DNA from: Escherichia coli O157:H7
GTDB taxonomy: Bacteria; Pseudomonadota; Gammaproteobacteria; Enterobacterales; Enterobacteriaceae
Assembly: GCF_013167455.1 (NCBI RefSeq)
Contig: NZ_CP038328.1
DNA length: 64,000 bases
Strand: one strand, 5' to 3'
Positions 1 through 44,882 of the stretch are shown piece after piece. The notes beneath the pieces are model-generated. The model worked only from the letters and a program-made list of their open reading frames with translations, ran no database searches and was not told where the DNA came from. The translations under genes and the position numbers were made by a program. Position 1 is the stretch's first letter; each line of letters starts with the position of its first letter.

Positions 1-493
1 GTGCCATGGTGCGCCAGAAAGGCGTGGTTGCATGGGCCTCCACTTTGCCAAGGAACGCACCACACCAGGGTAACAGATACTCACTGAACAGTGTTTCCAG
101 TGCTTCGCTCTCATCTTCCGTTGACTGATCTTCCAGCCAGGAAGCCGCAAGCAGCAATGTGCCGATGTGATCGGCAGGCGTATCCGCTAATGGCATCCCT
201 CGTTCAGAAAGAAAAGCGCGCACTTCCGCTTCCGTTGCGTCCTCAACCCATGCGCTACGATATGGCGGCACGGCACATTCATCGCCGATAAACAACGCAT
301 TGTAATCGGCAGAGACTTGCGTCATATCACAGCTTTTCTGCAAACGTGTCAGCAACTCATCCTGCTCCAGTGGCCAGTTCGCAGCCAGTTTCCCCTCACG
401 AATCAGGGTAAACAGCGGCACCAGTAAAGGATCTTGCGGTTGGCGGTAATAGAGCGAACCCAGCACACGACAGAGGATAGAAAACTCGTTCAT
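1..493 (-). CDS. ycdY: YcdY-family chaperone, partial (3' end runs off the window edge)
   Basis: Minus-strand ATG at 491-493; translation MNEFSILCRVLGSLYYRQ... matches remembered E. coli YcdY; lies upstream of ycdX as in the core ghrA-ycdX-ycdY arrangement. Confidence 0.8.
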   Translation of the reverse strand, partial: MNEFSILCRVLGSLYYRQPQDPLLVPLFTLIREGKLAANWPLEQDELLTRLQKSCDMTQVSADYNALFIGDECAVPPYRSAWVEDATEAEVRAFLSERGMPLADTPADHIGTLLLAASWLEDQSTEDESEALETLFSEYLLPWCGAFLGKVEAHATTPFWRTMA

Positions 494-516
494 TAATATA
501 TTTCCATTACTAGTAA

Positions 517-1254
517 TTAAAGGTCTGCAAATTCCGCAATCGGTGCCATACCGCGAGATTCAAGGAAGTTCAGTAAGCGGCGCGGAGAAACATTCAAAAT
601 GCGCTCTGGCGGAAAATCTACCGCGTCGAGGATTTTAAGACACTCTTCAAATTCCCCCATGGTAAACGCGGTGTGAGAATCCGAGCCTAATGCCACCCAA
701 CCTCCAGCATCACGTACCGCTGCGGCTACCGCACGACAGTTGTCTTCACTGCCCTTACGTGAGTGTAAAAATGAGGAATTATTGATTTCCAGCGCCACCT
801 GATGTTTCGCGGCTGCTTCAGCAACGGCTTTAACATCTATCTCATATTTCGGATTTCCGGGATGGCTTATTATATGCACATTGCCGCTGGCGATAGTGGC
901 GATCATCGCTTGTGTATTGGTCGCTTTGTCATGTGGTGCAAAAACCGGCTCATGAAAACCGGCAATAATCAGATCCAGCGAGTCAAACATTTTACCGCTG
1001 CAATCAATTTCACCATCAACATTTTTAATGTTAGCTTCGATGCCGCGCAGGATCCCTACCCCATCAACCACTCGCGGCCAGATACGCATGTTAATGAAGT
1101 GCCAGTGATGCGGCGCATCTTCCATGTCCGGGCCATGATCGGTAATCGCAAAAAGTTTAATGCCCTTTTGTTTGGCCTGGGCAATGTAATCACTCAATGT
1201 GCTATATGCATGTGTGCTGGCAACGGTATGCATATGAAGGTCGACGGGATACAT
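517..1254 (-). CDS. ycdX: PHP-domain phosphatase YcdX
   Basis: 245-aa [47 protein letters not shown]..., His-rich PHP motifs, expected size and neighbours. Confidence 0.9.
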
Positions 1255-1308
1255 AACTCTCTCCTGTATTCAATTCCCGCCAAGGATAGCAGGAATCCTG
1301 ATGCTTTA

Positions 1309-2286
<978 letters not shown>

Positions 2287-2480
2287 TTATCGTTATGATC
2301 TACAAAGACCACCAGCATAACAAATCCGTGGTCGGTGGCCAAAAAAGCAGATTTTGCTTATTAAAACTGCATATTGATTGAAGTTTGAATAAACGCGCGA
2401 TTTTTTAAAAAAGTTTGTTGACCTCAGGTCATGATTTCCCTAAATTAGCGCCCGTTCCAGCAAGACAGGAACGACAATTT

Positions 2481-2568
2481 GGTGAGGTGTCCGAGTGGCT
2501 GAAGGAGCACGCCTGGAAAGTGTGTATACGGCAACGTATCGGGGGTTCGAATCCCCCCCTCACCGCCA
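2481..2568 (+). tRNA. serX: tRNA-Ser (anticodon GGA), 88 nt with long variable arm and encoded CCA
   Basis: GGTGAGGTGTCCGAGTGGCTGAAGGAGCACGCCTGGAAAGTGTG...GGTTCGAATCCCCCCCTCACCGCCA; anticodon loop CTGGAAA; adjacent to ghrA as for serX rather than serW. Confidence 0.9.
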
Positions 2569-2575
2569 GATTATA

Positions 2576-2607
2576 AGCGCATGTTATTGTTTAACATGCG
2601 CTTTTTT
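2576..2607 (+). terminator. Rho-independent terminator after the tRNA
   Basis: Hairpin GCGCATGTTATTGTTTAACATGCGC followed by TTTTTTATTTT. Confidence 0.55.
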
Positions 2608-2717
2608 ATTTTCCCTTCCAGACAGTATGCCATCGGGTATGCCATCTGAAACCGGTTTATATGCCCCGCGATCATATCTTATCGGACAATTTCCGATCTT
2701 TGAGCATACTGGCAAAG

Positions 2718-3560
2718 CTATACTGCCAGCATATCAGGATAGTGTTTTGCGATAATATCATTCAGTCTGTCAACCAGTTCTGGTTTTCTGAACGTGATAT
2801 GCGCGGAGCCCTTCTTAAAGTATCTGATGCTGAACATCTCATCTTCATAGCTCTCTTTACCCTGAACAGACTGAATGTGATCATCCAGACGAAGGGTGAT
2901 GTTTCCCCGGTTGTCGGGGATTGGTTTACCGCTGAACAGGTGCAACATTCTTTCCAGATCGGCGAGTCGGTCAGCCTGTTGTCCGGTGATAAGATGAAAT
3001 CCCCACCGGTCCCATCTCACCAGATTGTTGACGATAATTTTACTGCCAAATTTACAGGGGCAATTGGTTTTGTAATTCCAGTTCAGCCCTCTGAAGACGT
3101 TGATCACCCCTCGCTCAAACACCTCATCCTTATTCTGGTGCAGTTGTTCAAATGTGCTCAGAATGTTCGCTTCGCTGATTTCCGGAAAATTATCGTACTC
3201 CAGTGACCGGTACCATGTATCACGGGCCTGCGTATCCATTAATGACAGCATCCCGGAACGTTGCATCAGGTCACGCCAGATTTCGCGATCAAGATTCCGG
3301 GTAATGGCTTTCATTGCTGTTTCGGGTTTCTCCATCAGCCAGCAGCCGCAGCGAAAATCCTGTTTCATGGCCCAGTCCGGGGCAGTTTTACCTCCGATGC
3401 TTTCCGTCAGCACCGAGATTTCAGCCAGTTGTCGGATAAGTGTGTCGATTTGCAACAGTGTACTCTTTCGTACAGCCAGAATGTGGCGAATGCTGGTTGA
3501 GCAGATAACGTCCGTATGCCCGTTGACCACTTCCGGACGGGAGATTGTGATATCTGACAT
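2718..3560 (-). CDS. Hypothetical protein, DUF4942-like, commonly found beside CbtA/CbeA modules
   Basis: 280-aa ORF; domain assignment from memory of similar island proteins, not verified. Confidence 0.5.
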   Translation of the reverse strand: MSDITISRPEVVNGHTDVICSTSIRHILAVRKSTLLQIDTLIRQLAEISVLTESIGGKTAPDWAMKQDFRCGCWLMEKPETAMKAITRNLDREIWRDLMQRSGMLSLMDTQARDTWYRSLEYDNFPEISEANILSTFEQLHQNKDEVFERGVINVFRGLNWNYKTNCPCKFGSKIIVNNLVRWDRWGFHLITGQQADRLADLERMLHLFSGKPIPDNRGNITLRLDDHIQSVQGKESYEDEMFSIRYFKKGSAHITFRKPELVDRLNDIIAKHYPDMLAV

Positions 3561-3644
3561 AATCGATATTCCTTTTTGCAGATAAATGAAAACGCTAGCC
3601 CTGTGCAGGCTGGCGTCAGAGGAATGAAGTCTGGTGAGTGAGCT

Positions 3645-3842
3645 TCACCGGTTCTGGTGCAGAAGCTGCAGATGACGCAGGGTACGGACATCCTCCCGGG
3701 CCTGTTCGATACAGGGCAACAGTGCTGCTGAATCCGTTTTATCCTCATCGTTGTCAAAGATAATTCCCGATCCGCAGTCGATATTGTCCTGCAGCCACGC
3801 AATCAGAATATCCAGCGCTGTTTCCGTGGTTAATGATTTCAT
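3645..3842 (-). CDS. Small hypothetical protein (about 65 aa from internal Met MKSLTTETALDILIAWLQ)
   Basis: ORF 3645..3887 overlaps the YeeW-like ORF; internal start is more plausible. Confidence 0.35.
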   Translation of the reverse strand: MKSLTTETALDILIAWLQDNIDCGSGIIFDNDEDKTDSAALLPCIEQAREDVRTLRHLQLLHQNR

Positions 3843-3853
3843 GTTGTTCCTGG

Positions 3854-4345
3854 TTACCAGTCGAAAGTGGGTAAACCCGGCAGGCATTCAGCGCTGGCAT
3901 CCAGATGAATGAGACTGACGCCATAACGCCGGATGAGTGTGACGACCAGACGACGGAACGTTTTTGACAGACCCAGGCGTTTAAGCCGCAGAACCGGGTA
4001 CGACCACGCATCGGTACGCAACAGATAGCCGTTACCGGTAAAATGAATCCATTCTGATTCACCGAAGTCACTGGTCTGGTGTGACAGCGAGTACAGCCAG
4101 GCGTTGTCCGTTTCCGTGATATGTGCGGTACTGCAGCGTATGCCGGTAAGGGTAGCAAATGGTGGCGTGCATTCTGCTGAGGTCTGGTCAGATTCATCAA
4201 CAACACGAAGGGAGTAGCCGTTATCGCAGACCATGTTAATCAGTTCAGCGAGCTCAATACCATCGACGTCAACGACAATGCGCCCCATGTTCAGTGCCTG
4301 TACGTTAACGCTGTCGGCTTCCAGTGTCAGGGCCAGTTTCATCAT
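3854..4345 (-). CDS. YeeW-like protein
   Basis: 163-aa ORF immediately downstream of cbtA in the same orientation, as in CP4-44-type modules. Confidence 0.55.
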
Positions 4346-4716
4346 TTCGCCTCCGGATACTTACCCAGGGTAATGTTATTTACCGTTCTGTAATTGTCGC
4401 GGGTCATCAGGCCGGTCGCCCGGCGAGCCCGGAGGATATCAATACTGTTTATTAACTGAGAGCGGGGACAGGTGCTGAATCCCGGCTGGTCGGTACGCAC
4501 CAGCGCGTATTTTTCCACGAGAAAATTAACTGCATCACACAGTGAAATGCCTGCCTCAATATGCTGCTCAATCACACGTTCATCGGCAAACGGTGTGTCA
4601 TTCAGTGTGAGGCCATAATGCTGGTCCAGCAGTCGGATGAGCAGTGTCTGCCAGATGGTGACGGGAGACGGGCAGCGAGATACCTCCCGTACATGTGTGT
4701 CGGATAATGTTTTCAT
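4342..4716 (-). CDS. cbtA: CbtA/YeeV-family toxin (type IV TA, cytoskeleton-targeting)
   Basis: ORF 4342..4818; probable start [26 protein letters not shown] (ATG at 4714-4716); 124 aa; follows antitoxin. Confidence 0.85.
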
Positions 4717-4762
4717 CTTAAGTTCTCTGTAACTGGTAGTGCTAAAGGTGAGAGCTTCGGGG

Positions 4763-5137
4763 TTATGAGGTGGTTGCGGGTGCTGGTGTCGGATAAACAG
4801 CCAGATAAACGTAACCACAGGAGCCGAGGGTGTCGGCTTCGCAGGTCAGCCCTTTTGCATTCAGCGTGACGGTATGCTGATATCGGGGATTCAGTTCACC
4901 GCTGGTGAGCATGAGTTCCAGTTGTTTCATCAGCAGCGGAAAGGCCTGGTCCAGATGGTATGCATCTGCGTCGCTGAAGCGGCCTCTGATACCGGCGCGG
5001 TCGGCAAGGTAATGCAGGCGGTTACCCTCTTGCACCAGACGAGCGCCAAAACAGGGCCTCACTGTGCAGGGAAGCCCCCACCAGGGGCGGTCGTGATTGT
5101 CATCGGGATGAGTTATCCCGGAGAGTTTGTCTGACAC
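4763..5137 (-). CDS. cbeA: CbeA/YeeU-family antitoxin
   Basis: 124-aa ORF with [41 protein letters not shown]..., close match to remembered YeeU. Confidence 0.9.
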
Positions 5138-5299
5138 GATAAAATCCTCTCTGAAAAGTGGTTAAGAATGGTTTAACGATGACAGGTCAGCCGGCGCGCT
5201 GACCGGTTTCGGTGAAGATGTATGCATTGATGAGAATGGCCTCATCCACAGCGGCGTCTGAGGTCATCTGGTCGTACTCGTTTCCCGGGTGACGGAACA

Positions 5300-5521
5300 T
5301 CAGTTCAGGGTGACACTCATCAGCCGGACATACGGGCCAAAACTGTCCTTACGGCGTTCTGCAAACACGGCAAGAACGCCGGGAATATCCTGCACTTCAC
5401 GACCAGTATACGCTTCAGCACTGCCGTGCCAGCGATACTTACCGGTACAGAACGGAAAAAGACGGGATGCAGGATGCTGTTGGTGAATACGCATGGCTTC
5501 ACCACGGGTGATGATTCTCAT
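5300..5521 (-). CDS. YeeT/YkfF-like small protein
   Basis: 73-aa ORF between the RadC-like gene and the antitoxin, same strand. Confidence 0.6.
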   Translation of the reverse strand: MRIITRGEAMRIHQQHPASRLFPFCTGKYRWHGSAEAYTGREVQDIPGVLAVFAERRKDSFGPYVRLMSVTLN

Positions 5522-5583
5522 GATGTGATACCTCTGAAGACAGAAGATAAAAGTGAAAACAGGTGTGATGTGGTTGTGACGGG

Positions 5584-6075
5584 TTAAAGCAGACCATGTT
5601 CGGCAAAGGAGAAAACCTGGTTGCCACCGACTATCAGATGGTCCGGCACCCGGATATCCACCAGGCCCAGTGCCTGTACCAGACGTTCGGTGATAAGCCG
5701 GTCTGCCTTACTGGGTGTGACTTCACCGGACGGGTGATTGTGCGCCAGCACCACGGCAGCGGCATTGTGGTACAGGGCGCGTTTAATCACTTCCCGGGGA
5801 TGAACTTCCGTACGGTTGATGGTGCCGGTGAAGAGGGTTTCACCGGCAATCAGCTGATTCTGGTTGTTCAGATACAGCACCCGGAACTCTTCCCGCTCCA
5901 GTCCCGCCATGTTCAGAATCAGCCATTCCCGTGCCGCACGGGTGGAGGTGAAGGCCACGCCGGGTTCATGAAGATGGCGGTCCAGGGTTTGCAGGGCCCG
6001 CAGAATGAGACTGCGCTCGCCGGGCGTCATCTCTCCGGGCAGAAAGGAAAGCTGCTGCATTGTCCCTGCCTCCAT
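5584..6075 (-). CDS. RadC-like JAB-domain protein (YeeS/YkfG/YfjY family)
   Basis: 163-aa ORF with JAMM-like motif HNHPSGEVTPSKAD. Confidence 0.85.
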   Translation of the reverse strand: MEAGTMQQLSFLPGEMTPGERSLILRALQTLDRHLHEPGVAFTSTRAAREWLILNMAGLEREEFRVLYLNNQNQLIAGETLFTGTINRTEVHPREVIKRALYHNAAAVVLAHNHPSGEVTPSKADRLITERLVQALGLVDIRVPDHLIVGGNQVFSFAEHGLL

Positions 6076-6561
6076 TCAGTCAATGATGCGCATAATGGCG
6101 CTGCATTCCGGATGCTGCAGGGCGTAATCCCGCAGCCGGTAATAGTGGACCGTCATGGCATAACACTCCGTACGACAGGCATGATGACTGTACGTCATCA
6201 GACAGGCAGCAATACCGGCGGCTTCCGGGCTCATTTCAGCGCGGTTGCCGTTCATGGCATTGAACAGTACCCATGTTTCGTCATCATCGTCATCCGGTTC
6301 GGGTGCCATAAATGCCCCGCCGTTGTTCAGGGTGTACAGATTCCAGATACCACCGCAGTAGTCTTCGCAAAGACGGTCCATCCAGCCGAAGACACGGGGC
6401 TCCAGGGTCACCCACTGTGGAATGAGGCCAAAATGCTGCGGCCAGAAGCTGATGCGCTGTTCATCAGGGACGGGAGTGGCAACCAGCTGAGGTGGGTTAT
6501 TCCCTGATGCAGTGGTTACGGAAACAGAAGGTGTGGTGGAATTATGCGAAACGGTTGTCAT
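6076..6561 (-). CDS. Antirestriction protein (KlcA/ArdB-like, YfjX/YafX family)
   Basis: 161-aa ORF with acidic DDDDDE patch; position upstream of the RadC-like gene as in CP4-type modules. Confidence 0.75.
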   Translation of the reverse strand: MTTVSHNSTTPSVSVTTASGNNPPQLVATPVPDEQRISFWPQHFGLIPQWVTLEPRVFGWMDRLCEDYCGGIWNLYTLNNGGAFMAPEPDDDDDETWVLFNAMNGNRAEMSPEAAGIAACLMTYSHHACRTECYAMTVHYYRLRDYALQHPECSAIMRIID

Positions 6562-6651
6562 GAGGTTATTCCTTATAAAAAGTAAATGAATGGAAGAAGC
6601 CCCGGGGCAGGAACAGATGTGAGTCAGGACTGCACTTTCAGTGAAACGGCA

Positions 6652-7470
6652 TCAGCGCATGCTCTCCAGCAGCGTTTCTGCCATCACCCACAATGCGCGA
6701 TTGAGCTTAATGTCGGTATCAATGCTGTGAATGGCCCGGGTATGGATACGTTTTCCTTTTGCACTGCGACCGGAAATCCCGCCTTTCAGCATATTCTCCT
6801 GGATGGTCTGATAAGCACTCCACAGGTCCTTACCGTAATCCTCCCGGCGTCGTGGTGTCAGAATGTCGGCGGTGGTGACGGGCTGATGTTCGTCACCATA
6901 ACGGTAAGTCAGTGCCGCCTGTGCCAGCGCCTGGCGTGCCGGTGGCGGCAGGACCAGCGACTGCATGGCATCACGCTTCTCCTCTATCCGGTCAAAAACG
7001 CCCACCACCTCGTAAGCCCCTTCAATGACTCTGTCCACCACATTTCCCCGGTGTGGAACACGCAATTCTCCCAGAGACTGACCGCAGACCAGTCCATTGG
7101 TACAAATGGCACGAAAATATCCGGGTAACATCTGGTAGCTGGATGAACCGTCATGGGAGTTGAGCAGAATAATTTCAGGGACATGCTGACCGGTTATCTG
7201 TCCGGCCCGCCGCAGACGCAGCATGTGTTTTGTGTATTCCCGGCGGCTCTGGTCGCGCACGCGGGTCTGGCAGGCAAAGAACGGCTGAAAGCCTTCCTGC
7301 TGCAGATTTTCCAGGACGGTGATAGTGGGAATGTACGCATAGTGTTCACTGCGAGAGGTATGTCGGTTTTCCCCAAAAATACTCGGTACATGGCGCATCA
7401 GTTCTTCGTGTGTCAGCGGACGATCACGACGTATCTGGTTCGCATAACCAAAACGACTGGCTAATCTCAT
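6652..7470 (-). CDS. DUF932-family protein (YafZ/YfjQ-like)
   Basis: 272-aa ORF; conserved position in CP4-like islands. Confidence 0.65.
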   Translation of the reverse strand: MRLASRFGYANQIRRDRPLTHEELMRHVPSIFGENRHTSRSEHYAYIPTITVLENLQQEGFQPFFACQTRVRDQSRREYTKHMLRLRRAGQITGQHVPEIILLNSHDGSSSYQMLPGYFRAICTNGLVCGQSLGELRVPHRGNVVDRVIEGAYEVVGVFDRIEEKRDAMQSLVLPPPARQALAQAALTYRYGDEHQPVTTADILTPRRREDYGKDLWSAYQTIQENMLKGGISGRSAKGKRIHTRAIHSIDTDIKLNRALWVMAETLLESMR

Positions 7471-7501
7471 GATTTGCTCCTTATGAATGATTAAGCGATA
7501 T

Positions 7502-7537
7502 AAATGAAAAAGCCGCGTCTCCCGGAGAAGACGCGGC
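7502..7537 (-). terminator. Rho-independent terminator on the minus strand, downstream of the patatin gene
   Basis: Stem GCCGCGTCT / AGACGCGGC with a U-run on the minus strand (A-run at 7506-7511 on plus). Confidence 0.55.
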
Positions 7538-7809
7538 CTGATGGGTGAAATGAATGAGGTTTATTGTCTGAGAAGCCCTTCACTGGCGAACCACGTATTA
7601 AGCTGTATTCCGGCATCGCCAGTGCAACTGACCTTCAGCATTGCGGATAACCCGCCGGAAATATGTTCACTGGTTGTTTTTGTATCTTCCCCCAAAATTA
7701 AATAAATTCATCTTAACCATCACCCAGATAATATATATCTGAAAATATTTTCAATAACACCAGACAGGAAAAACACCACCACAGGCGGTGGCGTTTCTTT
7801 GGGGCGTCT

Positions 7810-8880
7810 TTATTTAATCCGGGCCATCGCGTTTCTCAGTGCCAAATCTGCCTCTTCCGTTATATCCAGGCTTTTCTGCAATACCGCCTCTGACCGGGTC
7901 AGTGCCTGACGTGCTGCCAGCGGTTTCCGGATATGCTCCATCGCCAGCATCGTGTCTTCATAGCCCTGCTGACGCCAGGCGTCGGTATGTGCCGATGTAA
8001 AACTGAGCAGACCGCCGCTGTTGCCACCATCACCTGCATATTTCAGCCTTTTCCGGGGACGGATCTCAAGGATTGTGGTGTCCGGAAAAGCCTGGCGATC
8101 CCATAAAGAACCGTCACTCAGATGCGTCACAATCACCATATTGCATCCGGCATCGACCAGAGGCGTCACAGGGGTATTTCCCTGCATATTTCGCCATCCT
8201 CCCATACCACCATCACCGAACATTGTCCCCTGAACCTCACGGGGACGGAACAGCAGGGGCAGCGCGGCTGACGCAAGCAGAGCCTCTTTCTGCTGTCCGC
8301 GGGGCAGGCTCTGGATATGCTGAAAAACGGCGTTTTTCGTGGTTCCGACACCCAGTTCAGCACGAATGCAGTCAATAATATCCTGCATGCCCCCTTCTGT
8401 GGGGTACAGCGACACATACAGCGGTAGCCCGTCTGCCAGAGCATCAGTATCAAGATAATGATCCATCAGCGCTGTCAGGGGCTCATCTGACAACAACGGC
8501 TGAGCCATCAGATTGTCAAACCCGTTGATTGTCGATATATGGCGAAGAAGCGTCGTAAGCAGTGCTCCTGCACGTCCGGGGATCTGGCAGAGGTTCATTG
8601 CCTGGAACAATTTTTTCAGCAATGAAAAGTAAACCAATCTGTTTACCGACAGCACCTGATTATTCCCCAGATGCTCCCAGAGCGCCTCCAGGCGTACGGC
8701 AGCTTCTGACAGATCGGGAGAGGCCGCGATAATGGCACCATTGAATGCGCCAATGCTGGTCCCTGAAACCATGCTGATCTGTGTACCACACTCTGCCAGT
8801 GCCTTAACCACTCCCGCCTGATAAGCGCCCACCGCCCCGCCACCGGACAGCACCAGCCCCGTTTTCATTTCTGTACTCAT
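7810..8880 (-). CDS. Patatin-like phospholipase
   Basis: 356 aa; GGGAVG oxyanion-type motif near N-terminus, GTSIG (GxSxG) nucleophile, later DGG; 4-nt overlap with upstream gene. Confidence 0.8.
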   Translation of the reverse strand: MSTEMKTGLVLSGGGAVGAYQAGVVKALAECGTQISMVSGTSIGAFNGAIIAASPDLSEAAVRLEALWEHLGNNQVLSVNRLVYFSLLKKLFQAMNLCQIPGRAGALLTTLLRHISTINGFDNLMAQPLLSDEPLTALMDHYLDTDALADGLPLYVSLYPTEGGMQDIIDCIRAELGVGTTKNAVFQHIQSLPRGQQKEALLASAALPLLFRPREVQGTMFGDGGMGGWRNMQGNTPVTPLVDAGCNMVIVTHLSDGSLWDRQAFPDTTILEIRPRKRLKYAGDGGNSGGLLSFTSAHTDAWRQQGYEDTMLAMEHIRKPLAARQALTRSEAVLQKSLDITEEADLALRNAMARIK

Positions 8881-9782
8881 GCAGCCCCCTTCTGAAATAT
8901 TTCATCGACCATACTTTCAGAGAGGCGTTCTGCAGAGCAGAGGCGAGGCATGCGAACCGGTAAGTGTTCTGCAGCCTGCGTGGTTGACCAGATCACCGGA
9001 TGCTGCTCTTCACTGCACCAGTCTCCCAGCCAGTTAATCGCGTCATGCCACTCGTTATCTGCCTGCTCCCGGCCCTGACCACCAAGCCAGTCCAGAGTGT
9101 TCAGACGCACGGTTGCACTACCGCCACTCTCCTGTGCCATCTGCGTTAATGCTTTATGTCTGAGAATATCCAGTAGCTGGTTAACCTGGCCTGTTTCGCC
9201 CTGACGTATCACATCACCAAACGCGCCCCAGCGAAGCTCTTCAAGTGCCACATAACAACGTCCGGCAGGGGAAAATGACGCATATCGCCCGGCGCTCCAC
9301 CATGAGAATATCTGCTCAAGATGTAACTGCGCCCGCTGAACCTGGTCAACACGGTGGAGTTTTTCTTCAAGATGATTCAGTTTATGGTGAACCTGATCGG
9401 CCAGGGTGAGTAACTGCTCCCGCGTATCTGCGGAATAATGCGCCAGCCTGGCTGTATCACTGACCAGTGAACTGACCCTGTCGTTTACCCGGGTAATCGC
9501 GTAGTTTGTGGTGGCAAGTGACGTTGTCATCTCCGTCAGCCAGCGCAGGGACGCCTCAACGCCCTGTGCAAGCGACGCATTGATGGCATTCTGCCGTGCA
9601 GCGCCTTCGCCGGTCAGCCCCTCTTTTAAACGCCGGAAGAACGTGCGCTCTCCGGCCGTGCGGATATGCTCCTGTGCAACATCGATTCCGTTTGCGAAAT
9701 CAACCACAAATTTTTCAGGAAGACAGGTGAGTACCTGACATACCCGGTTATCAGCAATTTGTTGAATAAATGGTGAAGTCAC
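8877..9782 (-). CDS. YjcZ-like protein (partner of the dynamin-like GTPase)
   Basis: 301 aa; resembles remembered YjcZ; translationally coupled (overlapping start/stop) to the flanking genes. Confidence 0.6.
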   Translation of the reverse strand: MTSPFIQQIADNRVCQVLTCLPEKFVVDFANGIDVAQEHIRTAGERTFFRRLKEGLTGEGAARQNAINASLAQGVEASLRWLTEMTTSLATTNYAITRVNDRVSSLVSDTARLAHYSADTREQLLTLADQVHHKLNHLEEKLHRVDQVQRAQLHLEQIFSWWSAGRYASFSPAGRCYVALEELRWGAFGDVIRQGETGQVNQLLDILRHKALTQMAQESGGSATVRLNTLDWLGGQGREQADNEWHDAINWLGDWCSEEQHPVIWSTTQAAEHLPVRMPRLCSAERLSESMVDEIFQKGAA

Positions 9783-12166
9783 AGCATTGTCTCCAGCTCT
9801 TCCCTCAGCGCCTTACTGTCAGTAATGAGCTCAGGAACCCTTTCATTTAATGCCTGAAGTCGCCCGGTAAGCCGTTCCTGCGCCTGCTGATCGCGTTTAT
9901 GATCTTCAGAGCTCTGAATCAGCGTGTTACGCAGTTGTTCAACTTTCTCCCTGAATGCGCAGAAAAAGGCATCGATTTCCTGGCGGACGGGCTGGTTAAT
10001 ATCCTGCTCAATGGATGCCTGCAGCTCCCCGAAATATGCCCGGGTCAGTGACATAACTTCCTCTCTGGCCTTGTTGATATTGATCACGCTGCGACTCACA
10101 TCCTCGTCATAGTTTTCCCAGCCCAGGTCACTGGTGCCAAACCATCGACAAACGGTTCCCCATACGCCACTCTGCCGACGGCGACGGGTGACGGTCTCCG
10201 TTCTTTCCTCCATAAGCGCACTCAGATTTATTTTTACCGCGAGCCGGGTCTGTAACTGGCTGACTGCCGGAAAACTGATTTTTACGGTAAAGCCCTCATC
10301 CTCCAGGCGGGCATTGATGCGACCGGCAATGTTTTCTGTGGCGTACAGGGCCGTGCCACGAAAACCTGTTTCAATCCCGCTGACGATTTTCTCCAGCTCA
10401 GGCCGGAACTGTGCTTCAGCCTCACGGTGCAGGCTGGTCACGGTCGATTCGATTTGCGTCATCAGTTCAAGGGCTGCCCTGCGATCACTGAATTTTATTT
10501 CGGGGCTGTCCGGATCAAAGTCCCGCATCCTGTCATGCTGATTTCCGGTTCCGAAAATATCGTGAAAGAAAGCGAATGCGTTTCTCTCCCGGGGCTGCGC
10601 TGAATTTTCTTCCTCCAGCATTTGCTGTTCTTTGCGTTTACCGCTTCTGAAATAGTCGTTCAGCTCCTCCTCCAGTGAGGCACAGACCTTCGTCAGTAAT
10701 TCCCCGGTTTTGGTATTGATGTCCTCCATGGCCATTCTGACATCACCGGTCACCTGATTCTGACATTCCTCAATCTCCTGGATATCCGCCAGCAGGCTGG
10801 TAATATGCGCCTGTAGTGACTGAATGCTTTGCTGCAGCCCCTGATGACGTAATGACAGATATTCGCTGACATTTTCTGCATTCTGCATCAGTTTTGCGGC
10901 GGCAGAGTCAACCGCCAGTGCCGCCGCTCTGGAATGGGAGCTCTGTATGACTTCCGTTATCAGTTGATCGATCAGAGATATATTCCAGAGTTTTTCTGCC
11001 TTTTTATTTACCTTAGTGCTGTCTTTCCAGTCGTCCTCTTCCACCATAGGTCCGAAAGCTTCCCTGATAAAATCATCGACCCAGGCTTCATCAACCGGAA
11101 GCGCACCGTTTTTTCGTAACTCATGAAGCGCACGGTTAGCCAGGTACGCCTGACGTGATGAGCCGGGATAAACGCGGGAGGCGGGCAGCACATCGCTGTT
11201 CAGCATTGCTGGCACCTTCTGGCGTACGGCATCCGCACCATCACCATTGCGATCTTTTTCATCGAATTTATTGACCAGCACAAACAGACGACCGGCTGAG
11301 ACGTCAGCAATGGCATTAAGCTCTTTACGAACCTCCTCATCGGCTTTCGAGTTCATCTGGGTGTAATCCATCACCGCCAGCACCGCAGAGGCTTTCTGTA
11401 GTTGATCCCGCATCATCATTTCCATCTGTGGTTGTCCGGCTTCATTAGGGCCGGGGGTATCCAGCAGTGTGAGTGTTCCCTGACATGCATCCATTCCCAC
11501 CAGGTGGCTGAACGCCACGTCGATCACCGGTAGTTTCTGCACTTCTGCGTATTCGTCAAAAGGAAATTCAGTCCCCATTGCCGCAGCAAGACGAACCAGG
11601 TCATTTAACGATGCCAGTCCGGTAAAGATTTCGTCTTCCCCGTGGTATTCATTTTTAAGCCAGACATCATCCGCCAGAATATCCAGTAGTTCGCGGGTAT
11701 CCCCGGTTTGCTGCAGGGACTGTGCGACTTGCTGCCCTGCCGGGGTGGCGAGTTTTTCCTGCAGTGTGATTAATAAATTGCGGACGGGCTGAATATGTTC
11801 CAGATGGAGGACCGGTTCCGTTTTTCCGGGAACGTGGCGGATCAATGTCGGTACCGAGGTCATGGGGCGGTTACGGTTGGGCAGAATTTCCTGCCCCACA
11901 ATGGCGTTGATGGTGGTTGATTTGCCCGCCTTCATCGTGCCGACCACAGCCAGCACCATCTCCCTGCGGGCGGTTTTGATTTGTTCGCCCTCCAGCTCCT
12001 CAATTCTTTTCAGCGCTTTCCGTTTATCAAAAAGCAGCCCGTTTTCGTTCTTACTGTCAGATAACACATCCGGCTCATCAACCATTTGCCGGAGCAGATT
12101 GATATTCAGTTGCAAAAGCCGGTCGGCTTCATCACAAAGCAGGGCGATGTTCTTTTCGTGCATCAT
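9779..12166 (-). CDS. Dynamin-family large GTPase (CrfC/YjdA-like)
   Basis: 795 aa; G1 GTMKAGKST, G3 DTPGPNE, G4 NKFD; extensive coiled-coil C-terminal region. Confidence 0.8.
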   Translation of the reverse strand: MMHEKNIALLCDEADRLLQLNINLLRQMVDEPDVLSDSKNENGLLFDKRKALKRIEELEGEQIKTARREMVLAVVGTMKAGKSTTINAIVGQEILPNRNRPMTSVPTLIRHVPGKTEPVLHLEHIQPVRNLLITLQEKLATPAGQQVAQSLQQTGDTRELLDILADDVWLKNEYHGEDEIFTGLASLNDLVRLAAAMGTEFPFDEYAEVQKLPVIDVAFSHLVGMDACQGTLTLLDTPGPNEAGQPQMEMMMRDQLQKASAVLAVMDYTQMNSKADEEVRKELNAIADVSAGRLFVLVNKFDEKDRNGDGADAVRQKVPAMLNSDVLPASRVYPGSSRQAYLANRALHELRKNGALPVDEAWVDDFIREAFGPMVEEDDWKDSTKVNKKAEKLWNISLIDQLITEVIQSSHSRAAALAVDSAAAKLMQNAENVSEYLSLRHQGLQQSIQSLQAHITSLLADIQEIEECQNQVTGDVRMAMEDINTKTGELLTKVCASLEEELNDYFRSGKRKEQQMLEEENSAQPRERNAFAFFHDIFGTGNQHDRMRDFDPDSPEIKFSDRRAALELMTQIESTVTSLHREAEAQFRPELEKIVSGIETGFRGTALYATENIAGRINARLEDEGFTVKISFPAVSQLQTRLAVKINLSALMEERTETVTRRRRQSGVWGTVCRWFGTSDLGWENYDEDVSRSVININKAREEVMSLTRAYFGELQASIEQDINQPVRQEIDAFFCAFREKVEQLRNTLIQSSEDHKRDQQAQERLTGRLQALNERVPELITDSKALREELETML

Positions 12167-43246: not shown

Positions 43247-43702
43247 TCAGAGGCCAAATTCAGCCGGGTCGAAGCCCAACGCGATAGCGATCTCGCGGGA
43301 GGCCAGTTTCTCGTCCTGATCGAAGTTACCGTCACTTTTCGCAACGGCAATACCAACACGTAAGGCCAGCTGAGCGGCCTCAGGCTGATCTTTCAGCGCC
43401 AGGATGTATTTCATGGTTTCGCCCTTGCCAATTTCAACATCGAAATCGAAGCTTGAAACCAGTTTATTGAAGAACTCAATCACCTCATTGGTATCGAAGA
43501 CCTTCAGCTCTTCTGAAGAGCGCAGAAAGCCCATCATTTTCTGCTTTTCTTCCGAACTTACGCCGTCACTCGATACGGCAATACGGGCACATACAGCAAC
43601 GGTGCCCTGCATGAATTTTTTGTTTTTGAAACGGCCAACCTGGCGGGTCAGTTCGTCACGGCCTGAGTTAATGGCACCTTTAACTTTGTCGAAAAAGCTC
43701 AT
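43247..43702 (-). CDS. terB: Tellurium resistance protein TerB
   Basis: ORF track 43247..43762; start at MSFFDKVKGAINSG (ATG 43700-43702); 151 aa. Confidence 0.9.
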   Translation of the reverse strand: MSFFDKVKGAINSGRDELTRQVGRFKNKKFMQGTVAVCARIAVSSDGVSSEEKQKMMGFLRSSEELKVFDTNEVIEFFNKLVSSFDFDVEIGKGETMKYILALKDQPEAAQLALRVGIAVAKSDGNFDQDEKLASREIAIALGFDPAEFGL

Positions 43703-43724: not shown

Positions 43725-44882
43725 TTATTTAGAACCGGCGCTCCAGCGAAATCCCCAGCCAAATGCCCGGTCCATTTCGTCCTGGCCTTTGAAGTACTGG
43801 TTAATTCGCTCGACTTTAATTGCGCCGTTTTCGTTTACGAGTCTGGCAATGGCGCACAATGTGCGACGGTTCTCACCTTCGGTCAGGCGGGTCTCAATGG
43901 GTGGTTGATCCGGCACATGAATGGTGACTACACCATCAGTCTTGTCCCAGCTGGGAACACCTTCATAAATAAAGGCGTAAATCAGCACTTCGCGGATATG
44001 CTTCCATTCACGTCCATTGATATGCAGCCACTCGCCGTCTGATACATCACCCGTCCGGTCATCGCCCTTGAGCTGAACATACGGTTCATCGCGATAATCA
44101 CCGAATGCATTACCGAGCGCCTGAATGACCGATTTATACCCGTCCTGAAGCTCAACAAAGGCCCCCAGATCCAGGTCGATTCCTTTGGAGCCGAACATAC
44201 CTGCAAAGCCTGATTTGCTACTGCCCCGGTGCCAGTTCAGGTTGATCCGGATTTCACCGAAGTTATCCCGTTTGGTCAGGCTGATTGCAGGCTTCTCTTT
44301 TGTCAGCGATACCTTGCTCAGGCTGATTTTTGTCTCAACTGGCGGAGGGGTTACAACCGGAGGAGTTGGGGCTGCGGGAGCCGGTTCGTCGGCAATATTT
44401 ACGCCGAAATGCTCTGCCAGCGGTTTAAGTCCACCGTTGAACCCCTGCGCAACGAAGCGGAATTTCCAGTCATTATTACGACGGTAAAATTCCCCCAGAA
44501 TTAAGGCTGCTTCCTGACGGCCGCTCAGTTCGACACTGCCGCTAACCAGGCCGGTAGCCCCTTGCTCCACGTCGATGGAAAGATTACGAAGACCGGACAC
44601 CGTCTGCCCACCGTCACAGGTCACGGTGAACGCAATTTTCTGGACATCAGGTTTCAGCCGGTTGAGCGCGACAGTAAAGGTTGAGTACTGGCCTTCACTG
44701 ACCAGGCTGACGGTACCATCATCGTTACGTGGCTGACCATAAAACACCATGTCCGCATCACCCTGCACCTTCCCGTCGGCATACAGGCGAAACGCCGAAG
44801 CATCCACCTGGCCGCCCGAGGTGATCCGGACCCGCAACTCCTGGGCTGGAACGGGGGCATTGCCCCCCGGCGTCAGGTTCAT
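43725..44882 (-). CDS. terA: Tellurium resistance protein TerA
   Basis: 385 aa with TerD-like domains. Confidence 0.9.
   Translation of the reverse strand: MNLTPGGNAPVPAQELRVRITSGGQVDASAFRLYADGKVQGDADMVFYGQPRNDDGTVSLVSEGQYSTFTVALNRLKPDVQKIAFTVTCDGGQTVSGLRNLSIDVEQGATGLVSGSVELSGRQEAALILGEFYRRNNDWKFRFVAQGFNGGLKPLAEHFGVNIADEPAPAAPTPPVVTPPPVETKISLSKVSLTKEKPAISLTKRDNFGEIRINLNWHRGSSKSGFAGMFGSKGIDLDLGAFVELQDGYKSVIQALGNAFGDYRDEPYVQLKGDDRTGDVSDGEWLHINGREWKHIREVLIYAFIYEGVPSWDKTDGVVTIHVPDQPPIETRLTEGENRRTLCAIARLVNENGAIKVERINQYFKGQDEMDRAFGWGFRWSAGSK

Follow-up and report, generated by a model that had tools for sequence, protein, structure and literature searches.

What can be learned from the first genes of a genomic island about how it came to lie beside its target? 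We analysed a stretch of 64,000 nucleotides from Escherichia coli O157:H7 (contig NZ_CP038328.1 of assembly GCF_013167455.1), referred to here as the window, in which foreign DNA begins at the 3' end of the serine tRNA gene serX with a block of toxin-antitoxin and antirestriction genes at 2569-7470. This block lacks a neighbouring integrase. Our comparisons suggest, with a probability that we put at about 95%, that the whole is a known P4-type island inserted at serX with its integrase at the far end, and that it is neither integrase-less nor immobilised.

The serX junction and the gene block beside it

The intact serX gene is the only tRNA gene that ARAGORN counts in the window and the sole match of an Rfam scan of 1-9000 at E<=1. 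It shows no sequence difference from serX of K-12, and its neighbours ycdX and ghrA are those of the K-12 locus (Table 1). The empty K-12 serX site is matched exactly up to the CCA end; at 2568/2569 the similarity breaks off and foreign DNA begins, which bears out the initial annotation in placing the start of the island at the 3' end of this tRNA gene; both flanks of the island are matched by empty-site sequence in K-12. The last 14 nucleotides of serX constitute the attachment (att) core, CCCCCTCACCGCCA, whose direct repeat lies at the integrase end outside the window. Within the 64 kb, no further copy of even the last 10 nucleotides of serX is found. The empty K-12 site has a peculiarity of its own: in NC_000913.3 1095500-1099500 (positions 1523-2079 of this interval), serX is followed by three additional tandem units of ~181 bp each, every one of which opens with the 3' end of the tRNA gene (14-bp att core included) and continues with a terminator. 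The K-12 serX site carries four copies of the core in this way, O157 a single such unit, at the far end of the island. The K-12 units may stem from duplication or may be scars of past integrations.

The nine genes at 2718-7470, assigned by Pfam matches and by names from the Prokaryotic Genome Annotation Pipeline (PGAP), all lie on the minus strand and read toward serX. The initial annotation had this direction right, but listed only eight genes, its single 'YeeW' corresponding to the DUF957 and DUF5983 genes together. The CbtA-family and CbeA-family genes are adjacent on the minus strand with the antitoxin first, an arrangement consistent with a type IV toxin-antitoxin pair. The gene order of the module matches those of CP4-6 and CP4-57, and the module is the conserved right-end block of the backbone of the CP4-6/CP4-57/CP4-44 type; within the island at the 3' end of serX, 2569-7470 forms the end remote from the integrase. 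From family annotations and position, the module may contribute to establishment by anti-restriction and to stable retention by the type IV toxin-antitoxin system; a literature search on the role of these genes gave nothing useful. An operon just inside the module, at 7810-12163, encodes a dynamin-like GTPase together with an RdcB-family protein and a patatin-like phospholipase; the GTPase is CrfC-like (567 bits, but under the equivalog cutoff).

Table 1. Features of the serX locus and of the part of the island contained in the window (window coordinates).
Feature	Position	Strand	Basis and remarks
ycdX	517-1254	-	serX neighbour as at K-12 serX locus
ghrA	1309-2247	-	serX neighbour as at K-12 serX locus
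serX, tRNA-Ser(GGA), intact	2481-2568	+	ARAGORN; Rfam tRNA, 53.8 bits; chromosomal target gene of the island
att core, 14 bp, CCCCCTCACCGCCA	2555-2568	+	last 14 nt of serX; direct repeat at integrase end outside the window
SpLE1/OI-48 portion inside the window	2569-64000		first 61.4 kb of the island; ends inside ureE
Replacement serX terminator, island-supplied	2575-2613	+	terminator scan; 12-bp stem (2575-2603), then T-run
GTATGCCAT tandem pair	2625-2645 (2625-2633, 2637-2645)	+	candidate arm-type integrase sites, tRNA-side attP arm
DUF4942 protein	2718-3560	-	PF13708, 231 bits; PGAP; 'restriction methylase' in Sakai; last gene of the outward-reading end module
DUF957 small protein	3645-3842	-	PGAP name; no Pfam or NCBIfam match
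DUF5983 protein, YeeW-like position	3854-4345	-	PF25638 and PF19419
CbtA-family toxin, type IV toxin-antitoxin	4342-4716	-	PF06755, 204 bits
CbeA/YeeU-family antitoxin	4763-5137	-	PF06154, 182 bits
DUF987 protein, YeeT/YkfH/YpjJ-like	5300-5521	-	PF06174, 135 bits
RadC-like JAB-domain protein	5584-6060	-	PF04002, 152 bits
Antirestriction protein, KlcA/ArdB-type, YafX/YfjX-like	6076-6561	-	PF03230, 127 bits
DUF932 protein, YafZ/YfjQ-like	6652-7470	-	PF06067, 165 bits
AlpA-family small helix-turn-helix protein, internal	32532-32729	-	PF05930, 39.4 bits against a cutoff of 21

Identity of the island and its integrase end

Positions 1-9000 of the window are 100% identical to the chromosomes of O157:H7 Sakai, EDL933 and many other O157 strains. 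Read in reverse complement, Sakai 1440000-1459413 agrees base for base with the first 19414 positions, and beyond these the window stays collinear with Sakai except for one IS629. In the Sakai chromosome (NC_002695.2), a 'phage-like element SpLE1' is annotated at 1370598..1456845, spanning 86,248 bp and abutting serX. Judged by its sequence, the island is SpLE1 of Sakai, or O-island OI-48 of EDL933, the tellurite-resistance and adherence-conferring island (TAI) of O157:H7, which is already known in detail. The cargo of SpLE1/OI-48/TAI comprises cah, pchD, iha, terZABCDEF, the urease cluster and the IS-excision enhancer; cah, a pchD-like gene, iha, ter and the start of ure fall within the window. 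The serX junction, the gene block, the 14-bp repeats, the integrase and the cargo (cah, iha, ter, ure) are likewise those of this element, of which EDL933 carries a duplicate, OI-43, at serW. The sole structural difference from SpLE1 in Sakai is at ~26060-26065, where the window is without the IS629 copy that Sakai (at window position ~26065), CDC#03-98 and most O157:H7 genomes carry. The uninterrupted sequence is found in a minority of genomes, such as 2010C-3142 and PNUSAE151637, the latter with another insertion sequence (IS) elsewhere.

Two further segments of the island deserve mention. At 29562-31802, IS1F has an MGT-family glycosyltransferase gene (30678-31802, minus strand) on one side and a fragment of an alpha/beta-hydrolase gene (30276-30536) on the other; the two may be what is left of a salmochelin (iro) cluster of the kind seen on serX islands of extraintestinal pathogenic E. 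coli (ExPEC). At 60661-61366, a gene for a Hok/Gef-family toxin and one for a type-B paralogue of ribosomal protein L31 are annotated near IS fragments.

No integrase open reading frame had been seen in the 64 kb, and none emerged here: tblastn and phmmer --max searches with the island's own integrase, run against the window and 801 six-frame peptides, detected no tyrosine integrase or remnant of one (best E=0.4), and over the same extent PGAP annotates in a near-identical strain solely DDE-transposase fragments ('integrase core domain'). Past position 64000, the island runs ~23.5-24.8 kb further in Sakai, CDC#03-98 and PNUSAE151637. Its far end, adjoining ycdU, carries a P4-type tyrosine integrase of 400 residues (ECs_1299 / WP_000279869.1), about 23.5 kb from the end of the window. 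The protein is identical among Sakai-like strains, has the domains Arm-DNA-bind_3, Phage_int_M and Phage_integrase, and retains the motifs R246, H337-x-x-R340 and Y373. A distance of 160 bp separates its start codon from CCCCCTCACCGCCA, a perfect 14-bp copy of the serX 3' end in direct orientation, at Sakai 1370598-1370611 (position 8599 of our locus L001) and at position 43804 of locus L004. Beyond the repeat follow the native serX terminator and flank, as downstream of serX in K-12, and the predicted order at the far junction of the window's genome is GGCGGT-CCCCCTCACCGCCA-TATTTAAAGAAGAGCTCGTACG, then ycdU. Also outside the window, an AlpA-family gene (PF05930, 68 bits), a candidate recombination directionality factor of the AlpA/Rox type, lies ~3 kb from int, and a DUF3987/YfjI gene and a Gp2/YfjJ-type gene adjoin int as well; this set is the canonical P4-type integration module as in CP4-57. 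The island is thus bounded by intact serX at one end and a cognate tRNA fragment in direct orientation at the other, with a tyrosine integrase within the interval, the configuration by which Islander-type methods delimit islands. Of the possibilities raised by the initial annotation, the one that stands is an orientation that puts the integrase distally, past the edge of the window: inspection of the sequence past 64 kb in near-identical genomes yields the intact gene next to ycdU together with the direct serX repeat, albeit about 23 kb away rather than immediately beyond.

These features had been described before. OI-43/48 is flanked by perfect 14-bp repeats, TGGCGGTGAGGGGG, representing the last 14 bp of serW/serX, with intact serX at one end and a cryptic serX at the other; the repeats are identical to those of the pathogenicity island that carries the Shigella resistance locus (SRL PAI), and the P4-family integrase and SRL-PAI int share 99% identity at the nucleotide level (Bielaszewska et al., 2011, PMC3064760). 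The att core of the window is this published repeat of OI-43/48 and SRL PAI, and the junction, the 14-bp core and the integrase are near-identical to those of the published SpLE1/OI-43/48/SRL-PAI family. It is the cargo that sets the two islands apart, SRL PAI carrying antibiotic resistance, fec and aspartate metabolism genes in place of ter, iha and ure.

Could the island nevertheless be a fixed remnant at serX whose integrase was lost or decayed, as the initial annotation had contemplated? The absence of an integrase or its remnant from the window would fit such a state, as would the many pseudogenes and IS fragments of the island; remnants of IS66, IS3, IS1 and IS30 are annotated throughout it, in line with what had been noticed from the sequence. 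Against it stand the full-length integrase with its domains and catalytic motifs intact, the perfection of both 14-bp repeats, and the published observation of precise excision restoring serX, with OI-48 excised in 1.97x10^-4 of cells, including those of Sakai and EDL933, and OI-43 in 1.81x10^-3 (Bielaszewska et al., 2011, PMC3064760). Excision of SRL PAI is likewise int-dependent and precise (reviewed in PMC7545054). Two points weigh against our own explanation. Asadulghani et al. (2009, PMC2669165) detected no circular form of any SpLE in Sakai, whether mitomycin C was present or not, such that mobility is low or condition-dependent; and the sequence beyond 64000 was read from Sakai, CDC#03-98 and PNUSAE151637, which are identical or near-identical to the window (PNUSAE151637 has 2 mismatches to its last 5 kb), and not from the window's own genome. 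On balance, we consider immobilisation very improbable and favour an island with an intact integrase at its far end.

In this element, the layout follows from the geometry of attP. The attP core corresponds to the last 14 nucleotides of tRNA-Ser(GGA), and in the excised circle int lies 160 bp to one side of the core and the DUF4942 stop codon 149 bp to the other, so that both ends of the island adjoin attP. The end that comes to rest next to the restored tRNA gene is set solely by how the tRNA-identical core is oriented with respect to int; as this polarity is fixed, integration always places the antirestriction/toxin-antitoxin end against intact serX. In the process, serX receives a new terminator, while int goes to the far junction at ycdU together with the native terminator and the 14-bp tRNA fragment that was displaced. 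The integrase seemed absent because the 64-kb window stops ~23.5 kb short of it.

Orientation within the island family

Is this orientation peculiar to O157:H7? The integrase is present, at nucleotide identities of at least 90%, in 1267 of 5426 complete E. coli genomes, and the junction of serX, terminator and DUF4942 gene in 1323 of them. In four diverse loci (Nissle 1917, E2348/69, an enterotoxigenic E. coli strain and a plasmid-annotated record), int lies at the tRNA-distal chromosomal flank, followed by the repeat and then by the native serX terminator, and three diverged junctions show ghrA and serX followed by the identical gene block on the opposite strand. The integrase-distal orientation is the norm for this island family, and the comparison with related serX islands thereby refutes in substance the notion of an anomaly. 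The plasmid-annotated record, NZ_CP194962.1 of strain EC16, is an oddity in itself: its 243 kb carry the same integrase, the repeat and the ycdU chromosomal flank, which could mean that the record was misassembled, that it is a piece of chromosome, or that the locus was captured.

Given that IS-mediated rearrangements and deletions are frequent in OI-43/48, with strain 95S having a deletion at the int end (Bielaszewska et al., 2011, PMC3064760), one might also envisage that int originally lay beside serX and was carried away by a secondary inversion or other rearrangement of the island. However, the two copies of the core are direct and not inverted repeats, the native serX terminator follows the int-side repeat as simple integration predicts, and the same orientation recurs in every diverged member examined and in about a quarter of E. 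coli genomes, leaving this scenario with next to no likelihood.

A precedent for integration with the integrase at the far end is found in K-12 itself. In CP4-6, the genes that follow intact thrW, ykfI/yafW/ykfH/ykfG/yafX...yafZ, are encoded on the opposite strand, and intF lies 33 kb away at the far end; the block, which reads toward the tRNA gene, has the order CbtA-family toxin, antitoxin, DUF987, RadC-like, antirestriction ... DUF932, GTPase. CP4-6 differs in its tRNA target and its cargo, in lacking the tail of DUF5983, DUF957 and DUF4942 genes, and in its annotated boundary, which lies inside thrW, 49 nucleotides from the 3' end, whereas the island described here abuts the 3' end of serX. 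The premise of the initial annotation, that an integrase usually lies beside the tRNA gene, describes only a tendency, to which the layout at thrW is an exception. For the Islander algorithm, too, the integrase may lie at any point of the interval from the tRNA gene to the fragment and need not adjoin the tRNA gene.

CP4-57 shares the internal order of the backbone, with int, alpA, yfjI (DUF3987) and yfjJ ... yfjP GTPase, DUF932, antirestriction, RadC-like, DUF987, antitoxin and toxin genes, the last block reading outward at the int-distal end as in the present island. In CP4-57, by contrast, the annotated genes of the prophage start with int at the boundary after smpB. We take ssrA to lie at this smpB-side boundary; should that hold, the att core of CP4-57 has, with respect to its element, the reverse of the polarity seen in the island at serX, which is the usual picture from which the initial annotation started.

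One gene within the window might seem at odds with a single integration module at the far end. The AlpA-like regulator at 32532-32729, already recognised in the initial annotation, is a genuine family match; it adjoins a pseudogene fragment matching YagK/YfjJ-type genes elsewhere, in mosaic, IS-rich and low-GC (0.36-0.44) surroundings. As the backbone order int-alpA-yfjI-yfjJ is seen in CP4-57, the pair could be read as leftovers of the module by which another, older island, fused to this one, had integrated. Yet no integrase-like sequence is found near the gene, and in the locus of one other genome it lies inside an island, beside YagK/YfjJ fragments, with no integrase within 7 kb. The window contains no internal serX core nor, on a provisional check, 3'-end fragments of 11 or more nucleotides from pheV/U, selC, leuX, aspV or ssrA, and several AlpA-type regulators are often present in such islands. 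The internal gene does not belong to the integration module that is at work, and the suggestion that an older module decayed internally finds no integrase remnant, second att core or other tRNA fragment to lean on. We regard a composite origin as unlikely; it is unsupported, is not needed, and leaves the assignment to a P4-type island with its integrase at the far end unaffected.

The attachment arms and what the layout means

The 149 bp between serX and the DUF4942 gene contain two elements that point to a complete attP. The first is the replacement terminator, a strong hairpin, which is unchanged in four diverged junctions, the native one being displaced to the integrase/ycdU end. The second is the tandem pair of GTATGCCAT motifs, which is mirrored by a pair between the int start codon and the far repeat (43665 and 43677 in locus L004, spanning 43665-43685) with the same 12-bp spacing and orientation. 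The 9-mer occurs in 3 copies in the 64 kb vs 0.57 expected. On the int side, the pair is fully kept at five integrase-side loci, including a 94%-identical variant; on the serX side, where conservation is 98% over the entire junction region, the first copy reads GTATGCCAC in two of three diverged strains while the second is invariant. The GTATGCCAT pairs are probably arm-type binding sites of the integrase, as expected of a complete attP. Because of the replacement terminator and the mirrored pairs, we read 2569-2717 as a working att arm and not as a decayed edge. The paired motifs on both arms and the explicit assignment of an island-supplied serX terminator are small additions to what was known, and unsurprising ones for a P4-type attP.

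A tentative extension concerns gene expression. A terminator scan gave no terminator-like site for the end-module operon on its own strand, and the int-side GTATGCCAT pair sits between a candidate int promoter and the int start codon. The geometry of attP might conceivably couple excision to gene expression, with int expressed differently in the integrated and circular states, a notion drawn from consensus scans and position that we consider quite improbable. Were it true, the outward-reading end operon would, in the circle, point across attP into the int promoter region and int, and integrase bound at GTATGCCAT could autoregulate int, as IntS of KplE1 does.

What does the layout mean for tRNA-targeting islands in general? 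In the circular form their integrase sits beside attP, and depending on the polarity of the core it may therefore lie at either end of the integrated element; in SpLE1/OI-43/48 and many ExPEC serX islands, and presumably in SRL PAI, it always occupies the end opposite the intact tRNA gene. The present case calls for caution, as a fixed window of 64 kb cut an island of 86 kb and the lack of an integrase within these 64 kb was taken as a possible anomaly. The medical relevance of the island, already described, resides in tellurite resistance, which is used for the selective isolation of enterohaemorrhagic E. coli, and in the Iha adhesin, urease and the IS-excision enhancer.

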